From NCBI RefSeq assembly GCF_015521605.1, contig NZ_WANV01000017.1, positions 6,013-70,012 of the forward strand: a stretch of 64,000 nt of DNA, in the 5' to 3' direction. A program made the translations under genes and the position numbers. Under the pieces are notes generated by a model. It ran no database searches and was not told where the DNA came from. It worked only from the letters and a program-made list of their open reading frames with translations. Positions 26,623-47,911 of this stretch are shown in pieces (positions within the stretch are counted from its first letter, which is position 1; every line of letters starts with the position of its first letter). This DNA comes from Thermococcus sp. GTDB lineage: Archaea > Methanobacteriota_B > Thermococci > Thermococcales > Thermococcaceae.

Positions 26623-27504
26623 TTGTCTTTCGTTGTGGCGGGCCGGGCGGGATTTGAACCCGCGACCTTCGGCTCGAAGAGAAGTCTCAACGAAATGTGG
26701 GACCTCCACAAAGACCAGTTCAGGGAATGGCTCTCAAGCAAAGTAAAGGGCAAACGCACAGTGAAGGACTACATGAACTCGCTCGACAGATTTTTGGAGC
26801 GCCACAAAATCAGCACGATAGGTGAGCTGGTCTCAGCCCTCCAGAAGATCGACTACAACCACCACACTGTTTCTGCCCTCAGGAACTTCATAACCTTCCT
26901 GGAACTCTATGGCATCATAGACGGCGATGACGCGGACAGGATACGAAAGTACGCTAAAATGAAAAAGGCCAACGTGGACAGGACATACATCTCAAACGAG
27001 GAAATCCAGGAAGCCTGGAGGCAGGTCAAAGCATACCGTGAGAAACGCCGCGAGCTGGCGTTCAAGCTTCTCGTCTTCTCAGGGCTCCGGCTGGCCCACG
27101 TTCACTACCTCCTCACAACCTTCGACCCTGAAAAGCTGATTCTCCAGGGCAACATAGCAAAGTACCCGCTCCACGAAGCAGGCAAGGGCTCAAAGCGCGT
27201 GTTCTATGCATACATGCCGGCAGACTTTGCCCTTGAGCTCGAAAGGATTCCCGACAGTTACGATGCCATGAGGGAGTGGGTCAGGCGCTTCAGACCACCA
27301 GCACACCGCGTTAAGGGGAAGCTCATCAGGAAGTGGCACTTCAACTTTCTCATCCGGCATGGGGTTCCTTTTGAGGTCGCCGACTTTATCCAGGGCCGCT
27401 CCGCGAAGAGCGTTGGGGAAAGACACTACGCGAACCTTGAACTCCTCGCTGATGAAGCCTACTCCCGCGTTGTTGGGGATTTGAAGAAGGTTCTGGAGGG
27501 GTGA
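26623..27504 (+). CDS. int: SSV-type tyrosine integrase, C-terminal catalytic fragment Int(C)
   Basis: The ORF reads through attL (AGRAGFEPATFGS) into a recombinase domain with candidate catalytic residues (GLRLAH, RKWHFNFLIRHG, GERHY). Its N-terminal partner is at 47658-47911. Confidence 0.8.
   Translation: MSFVVAGRAGFEPATFGSKRSLNEMWDLHKDQFREWLSSKVKGKRTVKDYMNSLDRFLERHKISTIGELVSALQKIDYNHHTVSALRNFITFLELYGIIDGDDADRIRKYAKMKKANVDRTYISNEEIQEAWRQVKAYREKRRELAFKLLVFSGLRLAHVHYLLTTFDPEKLILQGNIAKYPLHEAGKGSKRVFYAYMPADFALELERIPDSYDAMREWVRRFRPPAHRVKGKLIRKWHFNFLIRHGVPFEVADFIQGRSAKSVGERHYANLELLADEAYSRVVGDLKKVLEG
26636..26675. repeat. attL core (40 bp, duplicate of the tRNA-Arg 3' part)
   Basis: TGGCGGGCCGGGCGGGATTTGAACCCGCGACCTTCGGCTC, identical to 47872-47911. 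Flanking bases differ on both sides. Confidence 0.9.
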
Positions 27505-27510
27505 TGCCGA

Positions 27511-27678
27511 ATGAATTTGGTTGTTATCCTGCTGGTTGGGGCCCTACTTGGATTTGGATTTGGCTTCGTGGTTGGAGATGCCCACGGGTACCTCGCTGGC
27601 CAAAAGGAGGCAATCGAGCTGCTTTCCTTTGAGCAGAGAAAGAAGTCTCCATTTATCAGAACAAGGACGAGGTGGTGA
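27511..27678 (+). CDS. Small single-TM protein (55 aa)
   Basis: Own call, below the ORF-track cutoff. ATG 7 nt after the int stop. MNLVVILLVGALLGFGFGFVVG hydrophobic helix. Confidence 0.4.
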   Translation: MNLVVILLVGALLGFGFGFVVGDAHGYLAGQKEAIELLSFEQRKKSPFIRTRTRW

Positions 27679-27682
27679 AGAA

Positions 27683-27883
27683 GTGAGTGGGAAGCCAGTG
27701 CGCCTGGTCTCGATCAGAGGCATCGCGAGGAAGTACAACCTCAACCACATGCGCGTGTGGCGCCTGTTCAACCTCTACCATTCTATCTATGGCGACGATC
27801 CTCGCTATGTTATCATAGACGCCGATGGCAGGCGAAAACCGACGCAGAAGTTCGAAGATTTCGTGAAAAAGCTCCTCTTGTGA
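27683..27883 (+). CDS. Small HTH-like DNA-binding protein (regulator/excisionase candidate)
   Basis: GTG start within the 120-aa ORF. VRLVSIRGIARKYNLNHMRVWRLF looks like an HTH. Lies next to the integrase. Confidence 0.45.
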   Translation: MSGKPVRLVSIRGIARKYNLNHMRVWRLFNLYHSIYGDDPRYVIIDADGRRKPTQKFEDFVKKLLL

Positions 27884-28058
27884 CTTCTTTTGTTACAATG
27901 TATTTTAGCTTTCTTTTTCATGAGTAATACGTTGAGAAGCCCCTTTCGCTCTAATCAGTTCTCTAAAGTCAAGTTCACCGCGAGGCCGAGCCCGAACTCC
28001 GAGGGCACCGATGAGACGGGGAGGGCGATGAGGCCGCCTGATAACCCTCCGGAGGGAT

Positions 28059-31245: not shown

Positions 31246-32808
31246 ATGAGGGCCCTTCCAGCGACTTTCATCATTTTCATTATGCTCTTTTCGACGCTCA
31301 GCGTTGCAGTAGCTGACAGCAGCTTCAACGAGACAGTCACTCAGCCTCAGCTCCCACACCTCACAATCTCTGACTACGTGAACAAGGCTCTCATCGCCAT
31401 CAAGGCCTGGCGCTTCGACAGCACCGGGCTAATCAGGACGAACACGGGCATCTACGTGGATGAGCAGTTTTGGGATTGGGTGACTGGCTCGATCCAGGCA
31501 AGCGCAAACCTCACCGACATGGCGCTGGACTGGCTGAACACCTTCAAGCAGAAGGTCCAGAACGACGAGGAAGTCGACTGGATCATCATCACCTGGCTGA
31601 AGCCGAACGATCGCATCAAAGAGGCCCTTGAGGCAGTTGGGGCGAAAGTCATCTACGTTGACGAGGGCATCCATGCAATCACCATCCGCGCCCGCCCGAG
31701 CCTCATCAAGAACCTCGTCTATTCCAAGGCCTTCGACTTCGGCTACCGCTTCTACATCAGAGAAGTTTGGCCAGACCTCTACGTCGCCAACAGCCCGGCA
31801 ACAGTTGAGAACGTCAACGCGGCCCTCCTCCAGGGCAACATCACTCCCGAACAGGTGGCCAACGCCAACTGGAACATCAAGCTGATAAAAGCGGATTTGG
31901 CCTGGAGCAAGAAGGGTATCACGGGCAAGGGTGTCACGATAGCGATCGTCGATACGGGCGTGGACTGCGACCACGTCATGCTCCAGGGCGCGTGCATAGC
32001 CAAAGCCAACTTCGTGAGCGACGAGCCTTCCGATGACCTCAACGGCCACGGAACCCACGTGGCCAGCATCGCCGCAGGGCGGCCAGTTAAGGTGAACGTG
32101 GACGGAAAAATTGTCTACGTGAGCGGTGTTGCGCCAGAAGCGAATGTTTTGGCCGTGAAAGTGCTCGGCAAGGACGGCGGGGGCACAATGACACAGATCA
32201 TCCAGGGGCTGGACTATGTTGTGGAATGGAAGAAGAAGCACCCTGACGAGCCGATAGTCGTGAGCATGAGCCTCGGAAGCCCGTTCGGAAGCCCAAGAGA
32301 CCCGATGGTCCAGAAGGTTGAACAGCTCATCAGGGAGGAGCACATCCCGGTCGTCATCGCGGCCGGAAACGAGTTCGTGGTCATAGACAGCCCCGGCATC
32401 GCCACCGGCGCCATCACCGTGGCCGCGGTTGACAGGGACATGAAGGTGGCCGAGTTCTCGGGCAAGGGGCCAGGCCTGAACATCTACGACATCAAGCCGG
32501 ACATAGCAGCTCCTGGCGTCAAGATAGTCGCCGCGAGGGCCGGAACGAAGAACGAGTTCATAGCCATGAGCGGAACCAGCATGGCCACACCGCACGTTTC
32601 CGGAGTTGTCGCCCTCATTCTCCAGGAGCACGGCACGCTGACGCCAGAGACTGTCAAGATGATCCTCCAGAAGACCGCTTATCCCTTGGACGGCATCAAC
32701 GCACTCCCGACCTGGAGTGGTGCGGGACTAGTGGATGCTTACGCCGCCGTGAACGCAGAGCCACCGAAAGAGAGCTTTTGGGGTTGGCTCGGGAGGCTGC
32801 TGCCATGA
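31246..32808 (+). CDS. Element-encoded secreted subtilisin-like serine protease (S8)
   Basis: 520 aa with a signal peptide. Triad motifs IAIVDTGVD, HGTHVASI and [12 protein letters not shown], plus an N-terminal propeptide-like region. Confidence 0.85.
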   Translation: MRALPATFIIFIMLFSTLSVAVADSSFNETVTQPQLPHLTISDYVNKALIAIKAWRFDSTGLIRTNTGIYVDEQFWDWVTGSIQASANLTDMALDWLNTFKQKVQNDEEVDWIIITWLKPNDRIKEALEAVGAKVIYVDEGIHAITIRARPSLIKNLVYSKAFDFGYRFYIREVWPDLYVANSPATVENVNAALLQGNITPEQVANANWNIKLIKADLAWSKKGITGKGVTIAIVDTGVDCDHVMLQGACIAKANFVSDEPSDDLNGHGTHVASIAAGRPVKVNVDGKIVYVSGVAPEANVLAVKVLGKDGGGTMTQIIQGLDYVVEWKKKHPDEPIVVSMSLGSPFGSPRDPMVQKVEQLIREEHIPVVIAAGNEFVVIDSPGIATGAITVAAVDRDMKVAEFSGKGPGLNIYDIKPDIAAPGVKIVAARAGTKNEFIAMSGTSMATPHVSGVVALILQEHGTLTPETVKMILQKTAYPLDGINALPTWSGAGLVDAYAAVNAEPPKESFWGWLGRLLP

Positions 32809-32951
32809 AGAAGTTCATCCTTTTCCTCCTCATTATTCTCCTCTTCACACTGTTCCTCGTCGGCGTGCAGAAGTTCCTGGAGAACGTCAGCCTCGCCATT
32901 GCGATCGCCCTCGTGCTCCGCATTGTGGATGAGTATGTGGATGGTGATTAG
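32805..32951 (+). CDS. Small TM protein (48 aa)
   Basis: Own call. ATGA overlap with the subtilase stop. MKKFILFLLIILLFTLFLVG. Confidence 0.45.
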   Translation: MKKFILFLLIILLFTLFLVGVQKFLENVSLAIAIALVLRIVDEYVDGD

Positions 32952-32953
32952 CC

Positions 32954-33211
32954 GTGTGGGGTTTGGAAGATAAACCGCTTCCTCTGAGGTTGGGAATAGC
33001 GATCCTCGCTGACGTCATTGATGCCCTGAACATGATTCCAGGGCTCAGCGACATCATCGAGGCTCCGCTTAACGCCTTCATAGCCTATGCCCTAACTGAC
33101 AATGTAAAAGCCTTGGCAGTGGGTGCTGCAGACGGTATCCTTCCAGCGCCGATTGACTGGTTCCCTTCAGCGACCATTATGGTGCTCGCAGATGAGTTCG
33201 GCTGGATTTGA
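32954..33211 (+). CDS. Small hydrophobic protein (85 aa)
   Basis: GTG start 2 nt after the previous stop. Amphipathic/hydrophobic sequence. Confidence 0.5.
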   Translation: MWGLEDKPLPLRLGIAILADVIDALNMIPGLSDIIEAPLNAFIAYALTDNVKALAVGAADGILPAPIDWFPSATIMVLADEFGWI

Positions 33212-33251
33212 GCTTTCGTTTTCTTCCTTCATCAAAGCGAGGTGAGAGAAA

Positions 33252-33623
33252 ATGAGTGCTGTTGGGCTGATCCTCGTCACTCTCATTGGGGCATTCATAC
33301 TCGCCACGGCCCTGTATTCATCAGGCGAGATGGCATTGGTTGTTGCTATCGGTTCGTTTGTAGCTCTTACCTTCCTCAAGCCCGAGCTGCTCTTCGAGGA
33401 CGTTTTTGCAATACAGGGGGTCATGTACTTCAAAGTGATTACGATACTTTTCGGCTATGTCTGGTACCTTGCAGGCTATGTCTTCGGGAACGTGGCCAAG
33501 TGGATTCTTGGAATAGCTCTCCTCGGCGTCTTCCTGTGGAGCCAGGGAATACACAGCATCAGCGACATCAAAAACGCGATCCAGCTTTCAAGCGGACTGG
33601 TCTTCTGGCTGGTGAGGGGGTGA
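33252..33623 (+). CDS. Polytopic membrane protein (123 aa, about 4 TM)
   Basis: Successive hydrophobic stretches, same strand, tight spacing. Confidence 0.6.
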   Translation: MSAVGLILVTLIGAFILATALYSSGEMALVVAIGSFVALTFLKPELLFEDVFAIQGVMYFKVITILFGYVWYLAGYVFGNVAKWILGIALLGVFLWSQGIHSISDIKNAIQLSSGLVFWLVRG

Positions 33624-33628
33624 GATGA

Positions 33629-34345
33629 GTGTACAACCCCGAGCTCGCCGCTACGACCTCGCAGGCCGTCATGCTCAGCATCCTCATCGTTGCTACTGCC
33701 TTCTTCGCCTACTTTGTGGTCTCCAAAAGGGCCGACATCTTTGGGGCGATCCTGCTCATGCTTCTCACAGCCTTCATGGCGAGGAATTACTATTACGTTG
33801 TCTACAGTGCGGGAGCGATGCTCGTCCTCGCCACTGTCGCTTACCTCACCAGCTATGACGAGGGGACAGTATCAGGGGCACTCTTTTGGGCCGGAATCGG
33901 GCTCTTTGCCTCGCTCATGATATTCTACGTCATGCCCGAGACAGTCAAGATGGGACAGGATCAAGCCTTTATCTACATCGTGCTCGTCCCGAGCTTCCTC
34001 ATTGTCCTCATTTCGGACTGGAAAGGGAAGTTTAACTTCGAGTGGGAGAACGCGCTGGCGATATTGATCCCGATCGCCTTTGCATTGGCTTTCGTCAGCA
34101 TGGTTGGGACATCCCACATCATTTGGGGGGCCGCGATCATGCTCTTCGGGATCATACTTGAATACTTCAATGCAGGCTTCGCCTCGACGGTGGCATTTGT
34201 CTCTGGATTCATTATCTGGCTTGATGACGTCATTGGGTACTCTTTGTATCCGAACTATGGCAATACTGCGGCCCTCCACATCCTCGGCCCTGTGGGAGCC
34301 GGGCTTGCGCTGATATATCTCTACCTGCTCGTGTGGGGTGATTGA
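33629..34345 (+). CDS. Polytopic membrane protein (238 aa, about 7 TM)
   Basis: Hydrophobic throughout. GTG start 5 nt after the previous stop. Confidence 0.65.
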   Translation: MYNPELAATTSQAVMLSILIVATAFFAYFVVSKRADIFGAILLMLLTAFMARNYYYVVYSAGAMLVLATVAYLTSYDEGTVSGALFWAGIGLFASLMIFYVMPETVKMGQDQAFIYIVLVPSFLIVLISDWKGKFNFEWENALAILIPIAFALAFVSMVGTSHIIWGAAIMLFGIILEYFNAGFASTVAFVSGFIIWLDDVIGYSLYPNYGNTAALHILGPVGAGLALIYLYLLVWGD

Positions 34346-34997
34346 GATGAAGAAGAAAGCCCTTGCAGTTTTCGTTTTGTTTCTGATTGTAGCGGCCCCC
34401 ACGGTGGGCGCATGGAGCCTGAAAGACCTGCTCAAAGGCACGGCAAGCCACGCCCTCGACCTTTTCACGAGAGAAGTGATGCCAGTCGATGGATACAAAG
34501 GCCTCAAGGTCGGCGAAGGCTTCTGGATCGAGGGCGAGCACTTCTGGAACCCTGACTACTACGTCCAGCTCAACGACAGTAGAGTCTACTGGAGCTACCT
34601 CGTGCCGACAGACGTGGACGTGAAAGTGCAGGTCTGGAAGGTCTATCTTGGCATCTTTGCGTTCCCCTACGCGACCTACGACGACATCTGGTGGAAGAAA
34701 GAGAAGGTTGGGGACGGCTGGATTGGAGCGTTCTTCGTGTGGGACTTCAGCTGGAGGCCCGGCCACGGTTGGAGACCTGCAGGAAAGGCATACATCGCTT
34801 ACAACCTGCCGAGCGCCCAAGACCTCAACGTCAAGAACGTCACGATACTCCAGAACGGCTCGGTTCAGGTTCTCTTCAACGACAACACGACGAAGCTCCT
34901 GAGCTTTGAGGAGTTTGAAGGCTTCGGGAACATGACTGTTGAGAACGTGACGTTCCGTCACCTGGTTGGGAACCTCTACTTGGTGAAAAGGGGGTGA
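34338..34997 (+). CDS. Secreted protein (219 aa)
   Basis: Signal peptide MKKKALAVFVLFLIVAAPTVGA. 8-nt overlap with the upstream gene. Confidence 0.6.
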   Translation: MIEMKKKALAVFVLFLIVAAPTVGAWSLKDLLKGTASHALDLFTREVMPVDGYKGLKVGEGFWIEGEHFWNPDYYVQLNDSRVYWSYLVPTDVDVKVQVWKVYLGIFAFPYATYDDIWWKKEKVGDGWIGAFFVWDFSWRPGHGWRPAGKAYIAYNLPSAQDLNVKNVTILQNGSVQVLFNDNTTKLLSFEEFEGFGNMTVENVTFRHLVGNLYLVKRG

Positions 34998-35001
34998 AAG
35001 G

Positions 35002-35127
35002 ATGTTTGGACTGGAGGTTCTGAACCTGAGTCCCGAGACGGCCTTCGCGGTAGGGGTGCTCTTCGGCCTGCTCCTGGCGTGGGGAATATACGAAGACCTG
35101 TACGCAGACAGGAGGGCACGGGCATGA
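35002..35127 (+). CDS. Small TM protein (41 aa)
   Basis: Own call. FAVGVLFGLLLAWGI helix. ATGA overlap with the next gene. Confidence 0.35.
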   Translation: MFGLEVLNLSPETAFAVGVLFGLLLAWGIYEDLYADRRARA

Positions 35128-35441
35128 GCCTGAGAACAGGCCTGATCCTCGCCCTGGCCTACATCGTGCCCTTCGCCATACTCATGCCACCGCAGAGCAC
35201 AAACGATCCCACCAGCGTCTTCCTCTGGTTCCTCTATCCTGTCATTTCAGGGATCATCATGGTCGGCGTCGTCATCGTCGCCTGGAAGTTCTTCGACATC
35301 GACTTCATCCCGTGGGGCCTGCTACTCCTCGTAGGCGCTCCACTGCTCACGCTGCTACTTAGTCCAATCTTCAGCCTCATGTGGGGCTTCTACATCGTGC
35401 CGACGGCCCTCGTCTTCCTCGTCGGCCTCCTGGAGGGGTGA
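35124..35441 (+). CDS. Membrane protein (105 aa, 3 TM)
   Basis: ATG 35124 within the 120-aa ORF. MSLRTGLILALAYIVPFAIL. Confidence 0.6.
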   Translation: MSLRTGLILALAYIVPFAILMPPQSTNDPTSVFLWFLYPVISGIIMVGVVIVAWKFFDIDFIPWGLLLLVGAPLLTLLLSPIFSLMWGFYIVPTALVFLVGLLEG

Positions 35442-35443
35442 GA

Positions 35444-35584
35444 ATGGTCAGCAAGAAGGTGTACCTCAAAAGGAAGCGCGAAATCCTGCACCGCGTCATC
35501 ACGAACCTTCAGAAGGAGCTCGCGCGGGTGAACCGCGAGCTGAAACAGCTTGAGAGGGGTGAGAGCCATGGAGCCCGCTCATGA
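35444..35584 (+). CDS. Small coiled-coil protein (46 aa)
   Basis: Own start choice (ATG 35444, 2 nt after the previous stop). KKVYLKRKREILHRVITNLQKELARVNRELKQLE. Confidence 0.4.
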   Translation: MVSKKVYLKRKREILHRVITNLQKELARVNRELKQLERGESHGARS

Positions 35585-36615: not shown

Positions 36616-36670
36616 GGCTTGAAGGCCACATATCAGGAAAATCACACATTCCAAAACGGGAGGTGAAAAG

Positions 36671-38466: not shown

Positions 38467-39646
38467 CGTCTTACTCATAATAATATATATGAATATAGCA
38501 CTTCATACCTATGCACTCGCATTTACATGGCAGCGGGAGGTCAGGCTCGGCGAACCCATTCTCATATATCATAATGATACCCTGCTCTATAACATCAGCA
38601 TCGAGATCAACAAGCAGGACAACCATACCTACGCCCTCATCCAGGACCTCCAGGCCGGAAGGCTCCTGGTTGAGAATATCGACTGGAACACTGTCGAGCT
38701 CGACGATACCAATATCAGCATCGTGAGCACGAGGAAGAGCATTCAGAACAAAACCGCCCTCATCATCATCACTGGTCCTGATGCCTACGCCGTGCTCCTC
38801 CAGGGCGAGCTGGCCAATGAGACCGAGCCGGAGAACCTGACGAACATCACTGTCGCGAACCAGACGAACCAGACCAACACCACCCCGACGAACCTGACTC
38901 CCGTCAATCTCACGCCCATCAACCTCACTCCCGTGATAATTCCAGAAAACGTTACCTGTGAGAGCGTCGAGGAGTGCCAGCAAATAATCGACAACCTGAC
39001 CGCACAGCTCGAACAGCTGAAGCAAGAGCGCGACGAACTGGCCAAACAGCTCCAGTACCTCCAGCAGCAACTCAACATGACTCAAACCGAAAACGAGCAG
39101 CTGAGAAAGCAGATCGAGATACTCCAGAAAGCCCTTGAGGAGAGGAACCAGCGCATCCGCGAGCTCGAAGAGGAGATCGAGCGCCTCAAGGCCGAACAGT
39201 GGTCGTGGGAGACTGCAAAGGAGAAGGCCGAAGAGCAGTACATGCTGTGGACGCCCTGGATATTCCCGCTTGTCTTGGGCGGGCTCGTCGTGAGCTACAG
39301 GAAATACAAGAAGATGAAGAAGTACGCCGAAGTCATGATCGACCAGAAGGCCCGGGAGCTCAAGGAGGAGCTTCTCTCTGAATACCTCAAGAAGGATCTG
39401 CTGAGGGCGAAGATCGAGACCATAGTCGATGATCCAAACCTCCTGGTTATTCTGAGAACCATCATCCCGCAGCTAACTGGAAGCCAGGAGATTACAAAGG
39501 GCGACATCCTCGAGCTCGACGTTGACCAGGTCGCAGAGCTCGCGAGGAAGAAGTTCCTCCTCAAGGAGAACCGCGTCGAGTACCTCAAGAAGAAGCTCAT
39601 CGAGCTGAAAGAAAAAATAAAGGAGGAGGCGGGCGGAGATGTTTGA
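38447..39646 (+). CDS. Type I membrane protein: sequon-rich ectodomain, long coiled coil, TM helix, cytoplasmic tail (399 aa)
   Basis: N-terminal hydrophobic leader, 15 NxT/S sequons, coiled coil LTAQLEQLKQERDELAKQLQYLQQQL.., TM WIFPLVLGGLVVSY. Confidence 0.65.
   Translation: MRRRIISVLLIIIYMNIALHTYALAFTWQREVRLGEPILIYHNDTLLYNISIEINKQDNHTYALIQDLQAGRLLVENIDWNTVELDDTNISIVSTRKSIQNKTALIIITGPDAYAVLLQGELANETEPENLTNITVANQTNQTNTTPTNLTPVNLTPINLTPVIIPENVTCESVEECQQIIDNLTAQLEQLKQERDELAKQLQYLQQQLNMTQTENEQLRKQIEILQKALEERNQRIRELEEEIERLKAEQWSWETAKEKAEEQYMLWTPWIFPLVLGGLVVSYRKYKKMKKYAEVMIDQKARELKEELLSEYLKKDLLRAKIETIVDDPNLLVILRTIIPQLTGSQEITKGDILELDVDQVAELARKKFLLKENRVEYLKKKLIELKEKIKEEAGGDV
38891..38935 (+). repeat. 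Three tandem 15-bp units encoding NLTPV/NLTPI/NLTPV
   Basis: AACCTGACTCCCGTC / AATCTCACGCCCATC / AACCTCACTCCCGTG, read directly. Confidence 0.8.
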
Positions 39647-39911
39647 ATGGTTTCTCTACATCTCCCTGGCCCTCGGGGCCTGGCTGATCTATGAGGTCGT
39701 GGCCGACAAAGTTCATGGCCCCGGCCGATACTGGATAACCCTCAACGTCGAGGGCGATGCCGACCGCGTCGAGTACCTCATCAGGCAACTCGCAAAGGAG
39801 CAGAAAATCAAGATCAGGAGCTACAAAGTCACGACCGAAAAACCCTCCAAACGCAAGAGGAAAAAGCTTTTTGGAGGTTTGCCGAAAAAAGAAAAGGAGG
39901 GTGCCACATGA
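39639..39911 (+). CDS. Small membrane protein with Lys-rich tail (90 aa)
   Basis: N-terminal TM helix FLYISLALGAWLIYEVV and a C-terminal KRKRKKLFGGLPKKEKE. Overlaps both neighbours. Confidence 0.5.
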   Translation: MFEWFLYISLALGAWLIYEVVADKVHGPGRYWITLNVEGDADRVEYLIRQLAKEQKIKIRSYKVTTEKPSKRKRKKLFGGLPKKEKEGAT

Positions 39912-41269
39912 AGAGGCTCGCCGCCTTTCTCATCTTTCTCCTCGCCGGTGCCATAGTGCCGGCCGCGGTGATGGCTGAAGGAGCGGTCGCGACGATCCAC
40001 GTTGAGGCAGGGATGCCCGAGACCATAACAATCCCCGGAGCGATAGTGAACTGGACCGGGGAGTTCCAGTATACGGCTGGCAAAGGATGGGAAGCCTACT
40101 TCAAAGTTCACTTTACCGAGACAGGCAACCCCCACGACGTGACAGCCACAGAACGCGGCTTTGTTGACTCTGACGGAAAATACATCTGGATTCTGACAGA
40201 CGTCCAAGTAACCGACAATCCGGAGGAGAAAGAACTCACACTCTACGGAGAGTGGAACCAATTCTTGGTCAAGGAGATCAATCCGCTGACCGGAGAGGCT
40301 AAGATATACAACGCCAGAGATGATAAGATCTACACGCTCCACAAGGGTGAAGAAGTGGAAATCGGGCAATTTGATATCACTGAACGAACCACCCTCGAGC
40401 TCAAAGACCTGACATGGAGCAGTGTTAGACTCATGCTCCACCACTACACGGTAGCCAGCGGGACTGTCGAAGTGTATCCAAATCCCGGCTATCCTCCGGG
40501 GACAGAGCTCGAAGAAGGAATGACGCCTACTCTTACAACAAACTCAACACCACAGCCCTTCATAGATCCGACAAAAGTTCCGGCGGTGATGATCGTTGTC
40601 GGTGAGCACGCAGCAGGGGCTGATGTGGCAGCAGGAGCAAAAGTTGGAATAGCAGTGCAGAAATGGATAGACGAATCCGACAGCCTCATCGAGTGGCTTC
40701 CCCTGCCCTCAACCGTCGTCAAGGCATACAAAGAACTCAAGAAAAGCTTCATACGCGCCGACGCGATGCTTGATACTGAGGTAACCGACCCCAACAAGAT
40801 GGCGCCAATCGTCTACAGTGTTGGGGGGCCGGCAGCGAACGAGTATTCAGCCATGCTCAACAACAGAACCGACCTGCCAGTGCGCTTTGTCAAGGAGAAC
40901 GGCAAGTGGTACCTCGTGAGCAAATACGGCGACAAGTGGAGCGGGAGCTACGGTGTCATTGAGGTAATACCCTCTGCAAGGACTCCAGAGGAAATGAAAG
41001 AGCACCTACTCAACGGCGACTTCAAACTCTACGACGTGCTCGTTGCAGGGCTTGACAGGAAAGGTACTTATGCAGCGTGCAAGCTGCTAAACGCCAACTT
41101 CATGGACATGCTCAACGGCCAGAAGCCGGATCCGAGGCTCATGAACCTCATCACCCTCCAGGCCCAACTCAACATGCTCTTCAGCGGCTACTTCTACCTC
41201 GACCAGGCCAATGCCGTGGCGATTGTTGTGGACGAAAATGGAAAAATAGTGGAAGTTGTAGCGGGGTGA
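39908..41269 (+). CDS. Secreted protein with weak S-layer-protein-like C-terminal half (453 aa)
   Basis: Signal peptide MKRLAAFLIFLLAGAIVPAAVMA. VMIVVGEHAAGADV and YSVGGPAANEY resemble the VGGPxxN motifs I remember from euryarchaeal S-layer proteins. Confidence 0.55.
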   Translation: MKRLAAFLIFLLAGAIVPAAVMAEGAVATIHVEAGMPETITIPGAIVNWTGEFQYTAGKGWEAYFKVHFTETGNPHDVTATERGFVDSDGKYIWILTDVQVTDNPEEKELTLYGEWNQFLVKEINPLTGEAKIYNARDDKIYTLHKGEEVEIGQFDITERTTLELKDLTWSSVRLMLHHYTVASGTVEVYPNPGYPPGTELEEGMTPTLTTNSTPQPFIDPTKVPAVMIVVGEHAAGADVAAGAKVGIAVQKWIDESDSLIEWLPLPSTVVKAYKELKKSFIRADAMLDTEVTDPNKMAPIVYSVGGPAANEYSAMLNNRTDLPVRFVKENGKWYLVSKYGDKWSGSYGVIEVIPSARTPEEMKEHLLNGDFKLYDVLVAGLDRKGTYAACKLLNANFMDMLNGQKPDPRLMNLITLQAQLNMLFSGYFYLDQANAVAIVVDENGKIVEVVAG

Positions 41270-41288: not shown

Positions 41289-41642
41289 TTACTCATAATT
41301 CAGGCGAAGTACAAAAGCACCTAACAATATAAGTAAGTTTATGAGTGCTGAGGTCATTGGGAGGTTTCCTTGGAGCAATATCCAAATGGCAAAGAGATAC
41401 CCTCCAATCCGCGCGAGAACGTAACATGCTGGCGCAGTAAATCCCTCACCTGCCGTTGCGAGTATACTCGCTATATCGGCCAATGCAAATATACTCACAA
41501 ATAATAGTCTTATCCATCCTGGAGTGCTTGAGGGAAACAATGTTATAAGTACAGCATATATTGCTGAAACAGCAATACCCAAAACTGTTCCAACCAATAC
41601 TTCTCCTACAGTATCTCCCACAACAGAAAATGGATTGTCCAT
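41289..41642 (-). CDS. Membrane protein (117 aa, 4 TM), the only minus-strand gene called in the element
   Basis: Hydrophobic ORF in the AT-rich islet. Confidence 0.55.
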   Translation of the reverse strand: MDNPFSVVGDTVGEVLVGTVLGIAVSAIYAVLITLFPSSTPGWIRLLFVSIFALADIASILATAGEGFTAPACYVLARIGGYLFAIWILLQGNLPMTSALINLLILLGAFVLRLNYE

Positions 41643-42410: not shown

Positions 42411-42412
42411 GT

Positions 42413-42436
42413 TTAATAATTAGTACTAATTATTAA
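42413..42436. repeat. 24-bp perfect palindrome TTAATAATTAGTACTAATTATTAA
   Basis: Read directly. Starts 3 nt after the AbrB gene stop, inside a 283-bp non-coding stretch. The 60-nt line at 42421 has 15 G+C. Confidence 0.85.
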
Positions 42437-42653
42437 TTAGGAATTATAGAAGCCTTTTATTTCTTTCTTCTGTCTTTTGCAGCCATATAACGGCTCCTTT
42501 TTTGGGTACTTAATTAATATGCAGGCAAAATATTTCTAATTACTGTAAGGCTTGGTAATTTCCGGGATTTTTCCCACTCAAAAAACCAATGTAGTTCATT
42601 CTACCCCAATTTTGGCCACAAAAATCTTTTATACTAAAAGTGCTTACTATCTT

Positions 42654-42677
42654 ACGAGAAATATTCTCGTACGAGAA
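42654..42677. promoter_or_regulatory. Operator-like repeats ACGAGAA-ATA-TTCTCGT-ACGAGAA next to a TATA-like TTTTATAC
   Basis: 7-bp inverted repeat plus a third direct copy, 17 nt upstream of the RHH gene ATG. TATA-like box at about 42628-42636. Confidence 0.55.
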
Positions 42678-42693
42678 AAAATCTCGGAAGGTG

Positions 42694-42879
42694 ATGAATG
42701 TGGAAAGACGTGGACGTCCTCGCAAGTATGATGGCCCCGTGAAGAGGTTCGAGGCATGGATTCCCTACGGTGTTTACCAAGAGATGGAGAAGGAGAAACT
42801 ACGTCGAGGTATCTCCTGGCCCGAGCTTGTTCTGGACATGTGGGATGCATACAAGGCAAGAGTTGCAGTTGATGGGTGA
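42694..42879 (+). CDS. Ribbon-helix-helix (CopG-like) protein with N-terminal GRPRK AT-hook-like motif (61 aa)
   Basis: MNVERRGRPRKYDGPVKRFEAWIPYGVYQEMEKEKLRRGISWPELVLDMW has a beta-strand/helix/helix pattern. ATG 42694 within the 79-aa ORF. Confidence 0.6.
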   Translation: MNVERRGRPRKYDGPVKRFEAWIPYGVYQEMEKEKLRRGISWPELVLDMWDAYKARVAVDG

Positions 42880-43871
42880 TCTTCATGAGAATTCCCGTGA
42901 GAGGCCCTGGACGTCCCCGGAAATGGAACAGTAGGCTGGTTCAATGGAGGGCGGATATTCCCGAAGAAGATTTCGAGCTCGCAGAGGACGAACGTTTGAA
43001 GTTGGGCCTCTCACGGGCGGAATGGTTCCACTGGCTTTTAAGACACACAAAAATGGACGTAATGGAACTCATCGCAAAGGTGCAGCACCAAGAAGACTAC
43101 ATCAAGCAGCTTGAAAAGGAGAAGCAAGCCCTTCTTGAGGAGCGCGAGAAGCTCCTTGAGAGGATCGAGAAGCTTGAGCTTCAGCTTGAAGCCCTCAAGC
43201 AGGGCCGCTCTGTCAGATCCTATCAGGACGCCAGGATGCTCAAGGCCCTCGCTGAAAAGGCTCGGGAGGGCGTCAGCTGGAAGGCCCTCTGTGCTGAGGT
43301 CCTTGGCCTCAGGGACGAGAACAAGATCAAACGCCTGCTCAAGCTGGCTTTTGTCGTGAAGAAGGATCAGCACAACAGGTTCCCGGACAAGTTCTACCCG
43401 AAGGACATTGCGGAGGAGTTCCACGGGTGGGTTCTCAAGAGGCCCGGCGCAAAGGCGGACATCATTGACTACGTCCTCTACAGGGAAGACACTCTCAAGG
43501 CTGCGAAGGGTCTGGCAGTCGGCGAGGCAGTGAAGGAGAAGGTCCCTGAGGTCAAGCCGCTCAGGACTGGAAAGGCCGCGGAGCGCTGGATTGAGGTGTT
43601 CTTTGAGCTTGTGCACCGCGAGTACATGAGCCTCATCGCTCAGAAGCGCGGCAAGGACGCGAAGAAGTACCTGGAAGAGAAGGTGCCACCAAAGCTGGAG
43701 AAGGTCCTGGCGGACATTGACCCGGAGGACTGGCGGCGTGCAATTCTGGCAGTGCTGGAGGAGCATGAGGAGGATTGGGGTGATGTTTTCGTTTCTAACC
43801 TTCGGCGCGTTGTTCTTCGCGCCCTTAACGCGTACCACTCAAAACCGCTGGAGGTGAAGGCCGATGTCTGA
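42876..43871 (+). CDS. RHH/AT-hook N-terminal domain + coiled coil + unknown C-terminal domain (331 aa)
   Basis: The N-terminus GPGRPRKWNSRLVQWRADIPEEDFELAEDERLKLGLSRAEWFHWLL is paralogous to the preceding 61-aa protein. Coiled coil IKQLEKEKQALLEEREKLLERIEKLELQLEALK. Confidence 0.6.
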   Translation: MIFMRIPVRGPGRPRKWNSRLVQWRADIPEEDFELAEDERLKLGLSRAEWFHWLLRHTKMDVMELIAKVQHQEDYIKQLEKEKQALLEEREKLLERIEKLELQLEALKQGRSVRSYQDARMLKALAEKAREGVSWKALCAEVLGLRDENKIKRLLKLAFVVKKDQHNRFPDKFYPKDIAEEFHGWVLKRPGAKADIIDYVLYREDTLKAAKGLAVGEAVKEKVPEVKPLRTGKAAERWIEVFFELVHREYMSLIAQKRGKDAKKYLEEKVPPKLEKVLADIDPEDWRRAILAVLEEHEEDWGDVFVSNLRRVVLRALNAYHSKPLEVKADV

Positions 43872-44121
43872 GGTGGAAACTGGATTTTGGGAATGGGTTG
43901 CTTCGGAGAAGGCTAGGTGGGATGAGGCGATTGAGTTGGTTGAGCGGGCCGAGGAAGTGCCGGACATCATCACGTGGCTCGAGCGGGAGATTCAGGTGGC
44001 CAGGGAAAACGCGTTCTCGCTCTCGCTCAGGGGCGAGAACGGGGCCGAGTACTGGACTGGCTATGCGGACGCGCTGGAGGACGTCCTCAACGCGATACGG
44101 AGAAGGGAGGTGAGGGCATGA
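43864..44121 (+). CDS. Hypothetical protein (85 aa)
   Basis: ORF-track ORF. 8-nt overlap upstream and ATGA overlap downstream. Confidence 0.5.
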   Translation: MSEVETGFWEWVASEKARWDEAIELVERAEEVPDIITWLEREIQVARENAFSLSLRGENGAEYWTGYADALEDVLNAIRRREVRA

Positions 44122-44273
44122 AGGTGGACAGGAACAGGTTCTTTGAGCTGAAGAGGGAGGTTGAGCTCCTGGCTCTCGAAGTCGAGAGCAACCACGCGAG
44201 GTACCTGCTTCGCCTGGCCTCGACGCTGATAGGTGATGCACTCGAAGAAGAGGAGCTGGAGGTGAGGGCATGA
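44118..44273 (+). CDS. Hypothetical protein (51 aa)
   Basis: ATG 44118 inside the 99-aa ORF. ATGA coupling at both ends. Confidence 0.4.
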   Translation: MKVDRNRFFELKREVELLALEVESNHARYLLRLASTLIGDALEEEELEVRA

Positions 44274-44608
44274 GTGAGTTTGGAGTCTTGGGCAGATTGA
44301 AGATTGTATATGGTGATGGCGAGACAATTGAAATCGCAGAAGGACCCCTAAATGAATTCTTTGATGACGATAAGATCAGGGAACTGTTGAGGCTTCAAAA
44401 AGAAGCTTTGGAGGAATGGCTTGAGAACGAGGAGTCATTTCTCAGGGAAGTGGTCGAAGAAGAAAGGAGGTACGGCTTTGACATCGACAAGTATCCACCT
44501 GAGCTCATTGAGAAGCTGAAGTACGTTGAGGGCCTTGATGAGGACATAGCTTCTGCTAAGAAGAGGCTCGCGATAATAAAACAACTTCTTGGGGAGGCTT
44601 CGCCATGA
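44270..44608 (+). CDS. Hypothetical acidic protein (112 aa)
   Basis: ORF-track ORF. Lower GC than its neighbours. Confidence 0.5.
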   Translation: MSEFGVLGRLKIVYGDGETIEIAEGPLNEFFDDDKIRELLRLQKEALEEWLENEESFLREVVEEERRYGFDIDKYPPELIEKLKYVEGLDEDIASAKKRLAIIKQLLGEASP

Positions 44609-44706
44609 GGCTGAAGCCCGTTGACCTCATCTTTGCGGTCCTAAAGGGCCTGGTGCTCGGCGAGCTCATTGCAGCTGTCCTCGCAGTTGTGGGGGTGATC
44701 CCGTGA
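44605..44706 (+). CDS. Small TM peptide (33 aa)
   Basis: Own call. ATGA overlap upstream and GTGA overlap downstream. LIFAVLKGLVLGELIAAVLAVVGVI. Confidence 0.3.
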   Translation: MRLKPVDLIFAVLKGLVLGELIAAVLAVVGVIP

Positions 44707-44855
44707 TCTCGAGGATTGAGGTTGATGCGAGGCTCCTGGAGGCAAGGTACAGCGTCAGGGAGGGGGACTTTGAGCGGGCAATCGAGAGTCTGGTGGAGCT
44801 CATCAGGGACCTGGTCGATGAGGTGGAGGAACTTCGCAGGGGGGCGGCCTCATGA
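44703..44855 (+). CDS. Small helical protein (50 aa)
   Basis: Own call. GTG start. VISRIEVDARLLEARYSVREGDFERAIESLVELIRDLVDEVEELRR. ATGA overlap with the next gene. Confidence 0.35.
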   Translation: MISRIEVDARLLEARYSVREGDFERAIESLVELIRDLVDEVEELRRGAAS

Positions 44856-45253
44856 CCCACTTTATATCATTCTCAGAGGAGGTTGCGGTAAAGCAGGAAG
44901 CGGCTAGGGAGGCCTGGCGCGCAAGGAAGGTTCAGGTTCTCGTCGAGGACGATGAGATCCCACCAGGGCACGAGCTGGCCCTCCCTCTCGAGAACCTCGT
45001 GAACTACCTTGAGACTATTGAAGTCCCCACGCAGGTGATCATTGACCTGGACGTGTACAGGGTGAAGCTCAGAAAGCGCGTTAGTAGGGAGGAGTACCGG
45101 GAGATACTCGAGGGGCTCAGGAGGCTCAGTTGGGCGCGGTGGGATAGGAGGAGCAGGGCGATTCTCGTTGACAGGACTCACACGTCGGCTCCGGAGGAGG
45201 AAGAGATTGAGGTTGAGGAAATTGTCGTCACACCCAAGGGGGTGAAGACCTAA
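44852..45253 (+). CDS. Hypothetical protein (133 aa)
   Basis: ORF-track ORF. Confidence 0.5.
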   Translation: MTHFISFSEEVAVKQEAAREAWRARKVQVLVEDDEIPPGHELALPLENLVNYLETIEVPTQVIIDLDVYRVKLRKRVSREEYREILEGLRRLSWARWDRRSRAILVDRTHTSAPEEEEIEVEEIVVTPKGVKT

Positions 45254-45780
45254 TGGCCTCGCGGACGGCTTTCGTCTATCAGGACTCGCTCAGCATTGAG
45301 GACGCGTTCACGTACTTCAAGCGCCTCATGCGGGACGCTGAGAACCGCGTGGCTTTCAGCCGGGCGCTCCAGAGGGCCCGCAAGGGCCTGGACGTGCACA
45401 TGTACGTGACGGACGTGGACAGCCTCATTGTGCAGTACCTGAACAGGAACGGTGTGAAGGGCTTCCGCTTCACGGGCTTCGAGCTGAAGAACATGAACCC
45501 GCACTCGGCGCTCGTGAACGGGAAGGTCAAGGTGAACGGCAAGCAGTACGAGGGGCATAGAATGTTTGCCATGAAGGCTGGCATTGACTTTTTCTACCTG
45601 GTCAATTTGGGCAGGGAGTTCCTGGTCTGGAACGTGGCGAACACGCCGGTGAATTTTGACTGGTACGGGCACGGCCCGGCCCACGATTACTACGCTTTCG
45701 TGGATTTGGAGGACGTGATTAGAGTCCCGGCTTCGGAGTTGCCGGGCACTCTCAGAATGCTGCTGTGGGGGCGCGGGTGA
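45253..45780 (+). CDS. Hypothetical protein with PD-(D/E)xK-like motif (175 aa)
   Basis: VTDVDSLIV..(20 aa)..GFELKN fits D..ExK spacing. TAATG junction upstream. Confidence 0.45.
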   Translation: MASRTAFVYQDSLSIEDAFTYFKRLMRDAENRVAFSRALQRARKGLDVHMYVTDVDSLIVQYLNRNGVKGFRFTGFELKNMNPHSALVNGKVKVNGKQYEGHRMFAMKAGIDFFYLVNLGREFLVWNVANTPVNFDWYGHGPAHDYYAFVDLEDVIRVPASELPGTLRMLLWGRG

Positions 45781-46037
45781 TGGCTCGGGTGAATTGGGAT
45801 AAGTGGGACTTGACGTTTTGGCCTCGTTCGGGAAGAGTGTTTATTGCGCACGTGAAGAGGAGGAGCGCTGACGGCACGATGATAGAAGCCGACGACGTGA
45901 AAGAAGTGACTGACAAGTTCTACGGTATCTTGGTTGAGATTCTCGAAAATCATGGTGGGGCGATAGAGTTCGAAACAAGAGGAGGGCGCAAATACAGGAT
46001 TTGGCTCGAAGAGGAGCGTGGTGGCGGTGAATCTTGA
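45780..46037 (+). CDS. Hypothetical protein (85 aa)
   Basis: ATGA overlap with the previous stop. In frame within the 90-aa ORF. Confidence 0.45.
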   Translation: MARVNWDKWDLTFWPRSGRVFIAHVKRRSADGTMIEADDVKEVTDKFYGILVEILENHGGAIEFETRGGRKYRIWLEEERGGGES

Positions 46038-46575
46038 GGAGTACAGGGAGTGGCTGAAAGAGAACGGCAACCTTGAGGAGGCCAAAGCCCCTGAAGTCAT
46101 TGAGAAGGTTGTGAAGAGGCACCTGAGCAAGCTCAACTGGAAGTCCTACAAAATCGACATAAGCCCTCGTAAGGTCTTCAAGGTCGATGGGAAACACTAT
46201 GAGTGCGATGCAACGGTTAAGCTCACCTGGCAGGCGTGGGACAATAAGACCCGCTCTATGATGATTGGCATTGAGTTCAAGGAGTGGGACTTCTCAAAGG
46301 TCGTGAGCCAGGCCGTCCACAGGAAGAGGTTCTTTGACTACATGTATATCGCTACCAGGCCCGTTACCCTCAGCCTGTCCTGGAACCCCTATGATTTCGC
46401 CCTGCTGATTAAGCACGGCATCGGTTGGGTTCTGTGGAGTGAGGACTTCGTTTACATCCTGCTCCCTGCCAAAAAGAAAGGGTGGGAGCGGGCAGAGGAA
46501 ATGGCTGAGAGGATTGAGCGCCTAATGAACACTCCGCTCCAGGAACCTAAGACGATAATGGATTACGTGAGGTGA
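46018..46575 (+). CDS. Hypothetical protein with PD-(D/E)xK-like motif (185 aa)
   Basis: YECDATVKL..(19 aa)..IGIEFKEWD fits D..ExK spacing. Confidence 0.45.
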   Translation: MVAVNLEEYREWLKENGNLEEAKAPEVIEKVVKRHLSKLNWKSYKIDISPRKVFKVDGKHYECDATVKLTWQAWDNKTRSMMIGIEFKEWDFSKVVSQAVHRKRFFDYMYIATRPVTLSLSWNPYDFALLIKHGIGWVLWSEDFVYILLPAKKKGWERAEEMAERIERLMNTPLQEPKTIMDYVR

Positions 46576-46581
46576 TGATGA

Positions 46582-46848
46582 ATGAGTGAGGGTTTCGATC
46601 TCACCATCAGGTTGGACGTGAACGATGACGGCCAGCCTGGAAGCCTCATCTGCTTTGAGCACGGTGGAAAGAAGTGGTGCGCGTACTACATTGAGCCTTG
46701 GGAAGTCATGGAAGCAGAATTGAAAGAGGCTGGCTTCCCGGACAACATTATCGAGTTCATCTACCGCTTCCTCGTGAAGTACGACCGGATTGACTTGCCA
46801 GACGACGGGGAGGATGAGGAGGACCTCGAGGAGGACTGGATACTATGA
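46582..46848 (+). CDS. Hypothetical protein with acidic tail (88 aa)
   Basis: ORF-track ORF. C-terminal DDGEDEEDLEEDW. Confidence 0.5.
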   Translation: MSEGFDLTIRLDVNDDGQPGSLICFEHGGKKWCAYYIEPWEVMEAELKEAGFPDNIIEFIYRFLVKYDRIDLPDDGEDEEDLEEDWIL

Positions 46849-46850
46849 CC

Positions 46851-46874
46851 GTTAACTTTCATACGAAAGTTAAC
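46851..46874. repeat. Perfect 10-bp inverted repeat GTTAACTTTC-ATAC-GAAAGTTAAC
   Basis: Read directly. Begins 3 nt after the stop at 46848, at the start of a 209-bp AT-rich gap. Confidence 0.8.
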
Positions 46875-47057
46875 AGGGATAATAACGCCTCCTGTATAGT
46901 ATCATTCTTTCCGAAAAGAAGTCTTCGTATGACCAAGGTGAAACAGCACAAATCCAGAATACTTGCACCACAATGCAGTATTCACCCCCAACTCGCCCAC
47001 CCCACTCCTGATGATAATTTTAAGCCCGTCGCAGTTAATAACTGAGGTGGTGTAACT

Positions 47058-47411
47058 ATGCCGAGAAAAAGACGCCTTCCCGACGTCGTGACCATCAAAA
47101 TGCCCGTCCTAGTTCAGCCTCGTGATGTGTTTGAAGTAGTCTTCGAAAGTGAGGAAGCCAGGAAGATGGCCGAGGAGATTGTGGAGTACATCAAGAAGAA
47201 CGGCCGCATGGGTTGGGACGAGTACAAGGAGCTCTTCCCGCCCGAGAAGCATTACCTCTACTTCCGCGTTATCAAGAGGCTTGAGGCCCTCGGCTTCATC
47301 AGCAGGGGCGCCTACCACACGTACATTCTCTCGAAGAAGTTTACTGACAGGATGGAGTATCTCGGCAAACTCTGGCTTTTCAAGATGGGCAAAGTCGAGG
47401 AAATCTGGTGA
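47058..47411 (+). CDS. Winged-helix-like protein (117 aa)
   Basis: IVEYIKKNGRMGWDEYKELF..YFRVIKRLEALGFISRG pattern. Confidence 0.5.
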   Translation: MPRKRRLPDVVTIKMPVLVQPRDVFEVVFESEEARKMAEEIVEYIKKNGRMGWDEYKELFPPEKHYLYFRVIKRLEALGFISRGAYHTYILSKKFTDRMEYLGKLWLFKMGKVEEIW

Positions 47412-47599
47412 GGAACATGACTACTGAGATGTTGTCAATTCTTGTTGGAATAATATTGATCATTGCAGGAGCACTCATTGGGGCAAAGGGCCTTGCTGAG
47501 GGAAATACTGTTTTAGCAGTGCTCGGGATCGGATTTGGTTATGGCGGAATGGCGATACTCAATGGGTGGGGCGATATCAGTCATGCAGAGGGGTGGTGA
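47408..47599 (+). CDS. Small membrane protein (63 aa, 2 TM)
   Basis: LSILVGIILIIAGALIGA and LAVLGIGFGYGGMAIL helices. ATGA-type overlap upstream. Confidence 0.45.
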   Translation: MRNMTTEMLSILVGIILIIAGALIGAKGLAEGNTVLAVLGIGFGYGGMAILNGWGDISHAEGW

Positions 47600-47657
47600 C
47601 GGCCATGACCGCAGTCCTAATAACCCGCGGAGTTAATATCCCACGCGGTGGGACAAT

Positions 47658-47911
47658 ATGCCCAAAAAGGCCCACAAAAATAGGGGCTCTCACACGGCCC
47701 AAAAAGCCCGAAAGAGCAAGAAGGTTAGAGTTCACATCTACCTTGATGAAGAGGTTGTCGCGGGTTTGCGGGAAGAAGGCTTCAACCTCTCTCAACTATT
47801 CAACAAGCTTGGGAGGGAGCGCCTTATGATGATGCGCTCTCAAAGGGGTCTCTTTTTCACGACAGAAAAGCTGGCGGGCCGGGCGGGATTTGAACCCGCG
47901 ACCTTCGGCTC
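47658..47911 (+). CDS. int: SSV-type integrase N-terminal fragment Int(N)
   Basis: The ORF enters attR in the same frame as Int(C) reads attL (..TTEKLAGRAGFEPATFGS). Alternative start at ATG 47826. The continuation beyond 47911 is read-through across the tRNA, not a real protein. Confidence 0.7.
47872..47911. repeat. attR core (40 bp)
   Basis: Identical to 26636-26675. Forms tRNA-Arg from the 3' side of the anticodon stem through CCA. Confidence 0.9.

Follow-up and report, generated by a model that had tools for sequence, protein, structure and literature searches.

Gene flow in deep-sea hyperthermophiles is known to run mainly through the integrated elements of Thermococcales, and the pAMT11/TKV1 family is the least studied among these, with 8 of the 47 elements counted by Badel 2020 (PMC7253208). 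Thermococcales plasmid families were first grouped by their Rep protein (Badel 2019), and membership of the pAMT11 family is assigned by the three genes ORF1-3 (Badel 2020, PMC7253208). TKV1, an accepted member, carries an MCM in place of Rep (Soler 2010 / Badel 2019), so membership of the pAMT11/TKV1 family does not strictly depend on Rep. What defines the pT26-2 family is a core of seven genes, t26-5p, 6p, 7p, 11p, 13p, 14p and 15p (Soler 2010; Badel 2019). Here we describe an insertion in a 64-kb stretch of the genome of a deep-sea Thermococcus sp. (contig NZ_WANV01000017.1; this whole stretch is called the window, and coordinates are window positions unless a contig is named). With a probability of about 0.88, positions 26676-47911 are a plasmid-like element of the pAMT11/TKV1 family, mosaic in composition and integrated by its own SSV-type integrase.

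Integration into tRNA-Arg(CCG) and the split integrase

A sequence-only reading of the window had proposed that exact 40-bp direct repeats with differing outer bases bound the insertion, that an intact tRNA-Arg(CCG) on the minus strand contributes its 3′ part as the right copy, and that the left copy runs straight into the catalytic domain of a tyrosine recombinase, as expected of an element with an SSV-type integrase. Each of these proposals is borne out by the analysis. The window contains two exact copies of the 40-mer TGGCGGGCCGGGCGGGATTTGAACCCGCGACCTTCGGCTC and no more (26636-26675 and 47872-47911), and it has no other long exact direct repeat; shuffling (100 shuffles) gives an expectation of 0 copies, and no extra copy appears even at 3 mismatches. 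It is not extendable by a single base on either side. ARAGORN and Rfam agree on the intact tRNA gene, in which the repeat takes in positions 39-78, starting right behind the anticodon and running through the CCA end, and no tRNA was called at the left copy. Counting one copy of this attachment (att) sequence, the insertion measures 21,236 bp.

The two repeat copies lie at the ends of an interrupted gene. The segment 47658-47911 (254 nt), int(N), and the segment 26676-27504 (829 nt), part of int(C), rejoin in frame across the att core to encode a 360-aa protein, residues 189-351 of which match the archaeal phage integrase family PF16795 (E = 2.4e-51). That the halves rejoin in this way indicates that attP lay inside the integrase gene itself, the signature of a "suicidal" integrase. 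Over its full length the rejoined protein is 45% identical to Int-pT26-2, a biochemically characterised enzyme able to excise in vitro with integrase alone, and its Y336 aligns with the catalytic Y327 of that enzyme (Badel 2020, PMC7253208). Among annotated plasmids the closest integrases are t26-1p of pT26-2 (45%) and one from a P. abyssi plasmid. Identity to the integrase of a sister element in T. thioreducens is 52%, which fits the report that pAMT11-like elements repeatedly captured pT26-2-type integrases (Badel 2020, PMC7253208).

The element entered the chromosome when attP within the integrase gene recombined with the 3′ 40 nt of tRNA-Arg(CCG), acting as attB. This exchange duplicated the 40 bp, kept the tRNA intact and split the integrase gene, so that int(C) now forms the left end of the element and int(N) the right. 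The circular form is predicted to carry the junction …CAGAAAAGC + att + GAAGAGAAG…. Integration in tRNA-Arg(CCG) by attP x attB recombination, with the tRNA preserved and the integrase split, is shown directly.

An M48 peptidase gene lies close to the tRNA on its right side, and a look-up of its exact product returned nine contigs. In two of them, L011 (ENA ERZ23495063) and L013 (NCBI GCA_027054325.1), the left flank, one 40-mer and the right flank follow each other base for base as predicted for attB, with 95-99% identity to the window in the flanks. The sequence-only reading had named relatives with the same genes at this locus and no att repeats as grounds for its refutation; the opposite was found, in favour of integration. 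Finding the predicted empty site exactly in two independent sister-strain assemblies indicates a real, recent, site-specific event. It also rules out, to a negligible residue of probability, that the repeat and insertion come from a chimeric contig in which plasmid and chromosome reads were joined at tRNA-like sequence. The site is a hard one for assemblers, since contigs L012 and L016 of the same sample series break exactly at att. Against such an artefact stand the independent ENA scaffold L002, with 100% identity along a 13.2-kb stretch that takes in attR and 12.6 kb of the element, and variant elements with the same attR junction in another metagenome-assembled genome (MAG) and in JGI contigs. 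There are also attL-type junctions of related integrases in L019-L022, and the split integrase gene is itself the expected product of a real integration.

The variant elements at the same tRNA-Arg(CCG) attR (L015 from GCA_027053615.1, positions 1-1000; L027; L029) have a near-identical int(N) and diverged genes upstream of it, and several related elements therefore use this site. Presence or absence of the element differs between strains with ~98-99% identical flanks. Together with the identical att copies and the intact reading frames, this polymorphism argues for a recent integration.

The flanks are chromosomal, as had been read from the sequence alone: they hold the signal recognition particle RNA, tRNAs, the C/D sRNA sR55, the M48 peptidase, a dCMP deaminase, a tungsten-cofactor radical-SAM maturase and Cas6. 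Their proteins cluster at ≥90% identity with those of T. thioreducens and T. thermotolerans, which points to a host Thermococcus close to T. thioreducens. In T. thioreducens itself, 18 accession numbers separate the radical-SAM maturase from the M48 peptidase, a gap that, going by the numbering only, would leave no room for a 33-gene insertion at this site.

A few further observations concern the same locus. The reading frame of int(N) continues through tRNA-Arg into the downstream gene of a BlaI/Penicillinase_R-family regulator (47658-48458, + strand), so that gene callers report a chimeric 266-aa protein in occupied strains (L002) and a 121-aa protein in empty-site strains, an annotation artefact. 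Two JGI metagenome contigs (L021 and L022) carry integrases 70-72% identical to the one described here, and their att core has changes at 4 of its 40 positions (…CGACCTTCGCCTA). Another tRNA seems to be targeted here, a possible case of target switching among close relatives. A tRNA-Val(CAC) (26123-26635 region), reported as the TKV1 target in T. kodakarensis, lies 435 bp left of attL and is convergent with tRNA-Arg. The spacer between them is non-coding and contains two similar motifs of ~25 nt near 26336 and 26503, TTAAAGTTAAACCCCCTCACAA and TTAAAAGTAAAACCCTCGCAAA.

In co-occurring strains (L010, 1-1510; L014, 1-1912) the tRNA-Arg(CCG) 3′ end leads, after 67 unmatched bp, into the radical-SAM maturase region. 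The window has the comparable tRNA end at 47870 and the maturase region at 4977-6817, in inverted orientation just downstream of tRNA-Gly(TCC) (4857-4934). The two tRNA genes have opposite orientation and their 3′ halves are 81-84% alike, and the arrangement suggests an inversion or rearrangement of the segment between them. The reciprocal junction was not found, the flanking proteins not being on record.

The conserved module and a candidate structured RNA

A megablast comparison of the complete element with PLSDB plasmids and INPHARED phages returned no match, and protein-level searches alone were informative. With the concatenated element proteins, tblastn gave one strong match, the plasmid pAMT11 of Thermococcus sp. 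AMT11 (GQ254849), collinear over 94% of the query at 51% amino acid identity. Collinear homologs of all genes between 28059 and 41269 exist in pAMT11, in an element of T. thioreducens OGL-20P and in three MAG-borne elements; by host strain and gene content the OGL-20P element appears to be the TthOGL-20P_IP1 of Badel 2020. The family markers ORF1-3 are present and in order, with 52%, 48% and 68% identity to their pAMT11 counterparts at 90-104% coverage (ORF1 and ORF3 are 61% and 88% identical to those of T. thioreducens). All 42 homologs of ORF2 reside in Thermococcales or Archaeoglobus elements.

The sequence-only reading had likened the size and gene content to the pT26-2/TKV2/TKV3 family. 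That comparison has a partial basis in the integrase type and in the TKV2-like variable genes; for the family core it finds no support. A permissive tblastn with the 32 pT26-2 proteins found 0 of the seven core genes in the element (best E = 0.069; no match for 5p, 7p, 14p and 15p), so the assignment fails on gene content, and the only pT26-2 proteins that matched were the integrase t26-1p (45%) and the AbrB regulator t26-20p (31%). That t26-1p is the nearest integrase among annotated plasmids, that the sizes are close (21.2 kb against 21.6 kb) and that six variable-module genes (AbrB, RHH-59, RHH-328, 85-aa, 175-aa and AF_0843; RHH, ribbon-helix-helix) are collinear with TKV2 would all suit a pT26-2 relative. 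However, the core region is pAMT11-like instead, and integrases and variable genes are known to swap between families (Badel 2020, PMC7253208; Soler 2010). We hold membership in the pT26-2 family to be very improbable.

Gene positions are collected in Table 1. The interior of the element is ~92% coding without obvious pseudogenes and, in agreement with the dense one-strand array and low-GC patches first noticed from the sequence, all genes but one are on the + strand; GC content falls to 0.42-0.46 at 41-43 kb, compared with 0.534 for the whole element and 0.558 for the flanks. At least 12 proteins of the conserved module have signal-like or transmembrane (TM) segments, while those of the right-hand module are almost all soluble. 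The products of the membrane/secreted run downstream of ORF3 all have collinear homologs in pAMT11 and/or sister elements and contain hydrophobic segments.

Table 1. Features of the element and of its insertion site, in window coordinates
Feature	Position	Strand	Remarks
attL	26636..26675		left 40-bp att core; 3′ tRNA-Arg fragment, not a tRNA gene
int(C)	26638..27504	+	C-terminal catalytic part of split SSV-type integrase, including Tyr Y336 (rejoined numbering)
small conserved protein, ~69 aa	27674..27883	+	adjoins int(C); 42-88% identity in sister elements; helix-turn-helix-like by eye
ORF1, secreted, 598 aa	28059..29855	+	LamG/concanavalin-A-like PF13385, E = 6e-16; N-terminal hydrophobic segment
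ORF2, secreted, ~442-454 aa	29865..31229	+	pAMT11 family marker; 48% to pAMT11 ORF2
ORF3, S8 subtilisin-like protease, 520 aa	31246..32808	+	PF00082, E = 5e-55; pAMT11 annotation "preprosubtilisine"
membrane/secreted run	32805..36479	+	~48, 85, 123 (33252-33623), 238 (7-TM), 219, 120 (3-TM), 67 and 309 aa
candidate structured non-coding element	36480..36671	+	~190 nt, directly upstream of the winged-helix and ATPase genes
coiled-coil + winged-helix (MarR/ArsR-like) protein, 181 aa	36671..37216	+	pAMT11 annotation "ArsR family"
P-loop ATPase, 417 aa	37213..38466	+	predicted HerA/FtsK/TrwB-type hexameric DNA-translocase fold
module end	38447..41269	+	membrane-anchored coiled-coil protein, 399 aa; 90 aa; secreted protein, 453 aa, with S_layer_C-like domain
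membrane protein, 117 aa, 4-TM	41289..41642	-	only minus-strand gene; homolog only in GB_MAG1 element
SpoVT/AbrB-family DNA-binding protein, 149 aa	41961..42410	+	PF04014; 66% to TKV2, 31% to t26-20p, 34% to TPV1 gp28
candidate origin/operator	42411..42699		most AT-rich stretch, up to 70% AT; upstream of small RHH gene
two GRPRK-motif paralogs, RHH-like N-terminus	42700..43871	+	59 aa (42700-42879) and 328 aa (42885-43871); 71% and 59% to TKV2
small soluble-protein cassette	43864..47599	+	85; 133 (gp05); 175 (gp06); DUF7446; 185; 88; 117 (AF_0843, gp08); 60 aa membrane
int(N)	47658..47911	+	N-terminal part of split integrase; ends in att core
tRNA-Arg(CCG), intact	47872..47949	-	its 3′ 40 nt (47872-47911) are attR

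The P-loop ATPase of the module has 59% identity to its counterpart in pAMT11 and 95% to that in T. thioreducens. Its Walker A motif GxxxxGKT is invariant in 23 homologs, and Walker A and B motifs mark it as a P-loop protein. A profile search against PDB sequences gave no significant match; the likeness to HerA and TrwB came from the fold search, in which an AlphaFold2 model (pLDDT 82, pTM 0.82) matched HerA (E = 8e-12, TM-score 0.62) and TrwB (E = 5e-9) in Foldseek with probability 1.0. Given the LamG/concanavalin-A-like, subtilase, S-layer-like and many membrane proteins encoded beside this ATPase, we infer that the conserved module may form a cell-envelope apparatus that moves DNA between cells. 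Such a machine may serve conjugation-like transfer, vesicle loading or particle formation. A DNA-transfer role was proposed earlier for the core module of pT26-2, which is analogous and unrelated to this one (Soler 2010 / Badel 2019). In Archaeoglobus profundus (CP001857.1, 730354-737595), homologs of the ATPase (46%) and ORF2 (37%) stand beside an SSV-type integrase gene, and the conserved genes of pAMT11-like elements thus extend beyond the Thermococcales.

Directly upstream of the winged helix-turn-helix (wHTH) and ATPase genes, the gap 36480-36670 (191 nt) is conserved at the DNA level despite stop codons. We aligned eight sequences (the window, T. thioreducens, three MAG or metagenome elements, two P. 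kukulkanii elements and a divergent MAG). From their independent MAFFT alignment RNAalifold derives a structure of 46 pairs, and compensatory double changes are seen at 24 of these. Paired cells make up 91.8%, compared with 77.6% in shuffles (0 of 500 reach the observed value), and in slid controls the number of covarying pairs never exceeds 7. Trained on four of the sequences, a covariance model recovers the other four at the same syntenic position with 65-126 bits. Folding favours the + strand (z = -4.5 versus -2.75 for the - strand) and G·U pairs are present. The apical region GAGUAGG…CCGAAAG is invariant and shows an AGUA/GAA signature, which we take to be typical of sarcin-ricin/loop-E motifs; this loop-E-like signature favours RNA over single-stranded DNA. 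In a weaker, predicted outer helix, the Shine-Dalgarno region of the wHTH gene would base-pair to a U-rich tract.

The RNA candidate matches no Rfam family. Its copies (L007, 9269-9459; L004, 9270-9458; L005, 9268-9458; L036, 2269-2458; L037/L038, 2260-2446; L006, 9228-9418) lie in one subclade of pAMT11-family elements. With an improved model, no convincing copy came up in pAMT11, L035, A. profundus, pT26-2 or TKV2, and the pAMT11-like subgroup has no alignable equivalent. Our best guess is that the RNA acts on the wHTH-ATPase genes as a cis-regulatory or intercistronic element.

Variable module, replication and mobility

Compared with pAMT11 and the sister elements, the right-hand module (41.3-47.6 kb) is almost without counterparts, and its links are to TKV2 and TPV1 instead. 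Six of its genes are collinear with the TKV2 variable region at 30-71% identity, and the proteins of the small cassette have counterparts in TPV1, TKV2 and pAMT11. The 328-aa RHH protein has 53 homologs, one of them named CopG/RHH by NCBI and one in T. kodakarensis, where it lies inside TKV2 (320,075-347,187, beside tRNA-Glu). In TPV1 the 133-aa protein corresponds to gp05, the 175-aa protein to gp06 (84%; annotated as a Holliday-junction resolvase) and the AF_0843-type regulator to gp08, and the integrase (38%) and AbrB (34%) match as well. Beyond AbrB, DUF7446 and AF_0843, searches of the right-module proteins against Pfam, NCBIfam, PHROGs and PDB returned no function. By gene content the element reads as a mosaic of a 13-kb pAMT11-type conserved module, a pT26-2-type integrase and a TKV2/TPV1 regulatory and recombination cassette that takes up the right-hand 5.5 kb.

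These links to a virus raise the question of whether the element is a spindle-shaped provirus of the TPV1/PAV1 type, with the conserved module encoding virion and adsorption proteins. The SSV-type integrase fits this, as do the secreted LamG/concanavalin-A-like protein, comparable to gp22 and gp23 of TPV1, and the five right-cassette genes common to both (up to 84%) along with the integrase and AbrB. HerA/FtsK-fold ATPases can also package viral genomes. But no element protein matches the TPV1 structural genes gp12-gp25 at E ≤ 1e-3, and PHROGs gave no capsid match for the small hydrophobic proteins, although short hydrophobic capsid proteins are hard to detect and this negative is not absolute. 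Moreover, the sole isolated relative, pAMT11, was described as a plasmid, and no relative was found in IMG/VR, including in a search with the ATPase profile. We judge a provirus improbable and favour the integrated plasmid.

How such a plasmid would replicate can be approached from gene order. The 85-aa gene comes after Rep in pAMT11, after the MCM in TPV1 and after the RHH protein in TKV2 and here, and this shared neighbour puts the 328-aa protein in the slot of a replication protein. TKV2 is listed without Rep. An AlphaFold2 model of the 328-aa protein (pLDDT 80) shows an RHH-like region at the N-terminus, a long coiled coil, a domain resembling a winged helix and a helical domain at the C-terminus; the fold search gave no significant match and no enzymatic domain. 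By the criteria of Badel 2019, the AT-rich stretch that precedes the small RHH gene may be a replication origin or an operator region: it contains a 24-bp perfect palindrome, TTAATAATTAGTACTAATTATTAA (42413-42436), and tandem or palindromic 17-nt units (TACGAGAAA…) at 42645-42690, GC skew turns strongly positive right after it, and its place behind the AbrB gene is that of the origin predicted in pT26-2.

From these pieces one may speculate, with rather little confidence, that the conserved module is an uncharacterised archaeal DNA-transfer apparatus, working through contact, vesicles or particles, powered by the HerA/TrwB-type ATPase and controlled by the RNA, and that RHH-328 is an origin-binding initiator of a new kind that recruits the host replisome. 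Were this true, it would explain why TKV2 and many integrated Thermococcales elements seem to be without Rep.

Several results weigh against the reading as an integrated mobile plasmid of the pAMT11/TKV1 family. Library and fold searches recognised no replicase among the element proteins, and pAMT11 Rep (15898-17760), the protein by which the families were first grouped, has no homolog in the element. TKV1 was absent from the genome-scan and protein-search matches; the family placement draws on the comparison with pAMT11 and the other members. The DNA-transfer role of the conserved module is argued from domain content and the ATPase fold only, and that module may have a virion-related role. 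Of the two junctions that had been named for a search, the empty attB was found, as described, and the circular attP was absent from JGI metagenome contigs; the att 40-mer was also absent from IMG/VR. No unsplit integrase gene turned up in JGI metagenomes or IMG/VR, all 13 of 13 metagenomic relatives being split. One candidate, L027, was rejected since it is an attR. With neither attP nor an unsplit integrase at hand, current mobility is unproven.

The lack of a recognisable replicase and the disrupted integrase suggest that the integrated copy is probably replicated passively with the chromosome and that it would excise only when intact integrase is supplied. A stronger version, in which the element is a decaying or domesticated remnant, permanently integrated and unable to replicate or excise, would account for the split integrase, for the missing Rep and for the absence of attP from public data, and integrated Thermococcales plasmids do tend to lose replication functions (Badel 2019). 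It is at odds with the identical att copies, with integrase halves that are intact and in frame, with the ~92% coding interior free of obvious pseudogenes and with the presence/absence polymorphism between strains with ~98-99% identical flanks, which points to a recent event; besides, Int-pT26-2 alone excises in vitro (Badel 2020, PMC7253208). Permanent integration is possible, and we consider it the less likely state of this element.

Comparison with described elements

The combination of a pAMT11/TKV1-family plasmid with a suicidal integrase of pT26-2 type is already described (Badel 2020, PMC7253208). What is added here is a specific element, the tRNA-Arg(CCG) target, the TKV2/TPV1-type cassette, the fold assignment of the ATPase and the RNA candidate, which are additions and not surprises: the element extends current ideas and changes none. 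Its value is that of a clean natural example, with occupied and empty sites in metagenomes from the same sample series and an integrase that can be reconstructed in full, and it joins modules that the literature assigns to separate plasmid families and a virus. The HerA/TrwB fold and the covarying RNA offer experimental handles in the cultivable hosts T. thioreducens and P. kukulkanii.

The element shares with integrases of the Int-pT26-2 type an attP inside the integrase reading frame, the splitting of that gene into int(N) and int(C) on integration, and a target in the 3′ part of a tRNA gene that is antiparallel to int. The target differs from that of pT26-2. Here it is tRNA-Arg(CCG), with a 40-bp att starting just after the anticodon, whereas pT26-2 uses tRNA-Arg(TCT), with a 51-bp att that reaches 6 nt past the tRNA (Badel 2020, PMC7253208). 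No mention of the CCG isoacceptor was found in the main text of Badel 2020 (PMC7253208).

With pAMT11 and the T. thioreducens element it has in common ~20 collinear genes, from ORF1 to the S-layer-like protein, at 38-69% and 43-95% identity, respectively, and its size (21.2 kb) is similar to that of pAMT11 (20.5 kb). In contrast, pAMT11 has a Rep, of the Rep-Arvir/DUF7845 type (PMC13107129), and a serine recombinase and is without integrase, while the present element has neither of the former and carries an SSV-type integrase; the structured RNA is present here and not in pAMT11. The T. thioreducens element has a different integrase (52%), a different variable region and a different target, tRNA-Tyr (Badel 2020, PMC7253208).

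On the right-hand side the likeness is to TKV2, in which AbrB, a small RHH protein, an RHH protein of ~330 aa and the 85-aa protein likewise precede the AF_0843 regulator and int(N). The pT26-2 core module of TKV2 is absent here, as are the structural module and the MCM helicase of TPV1.

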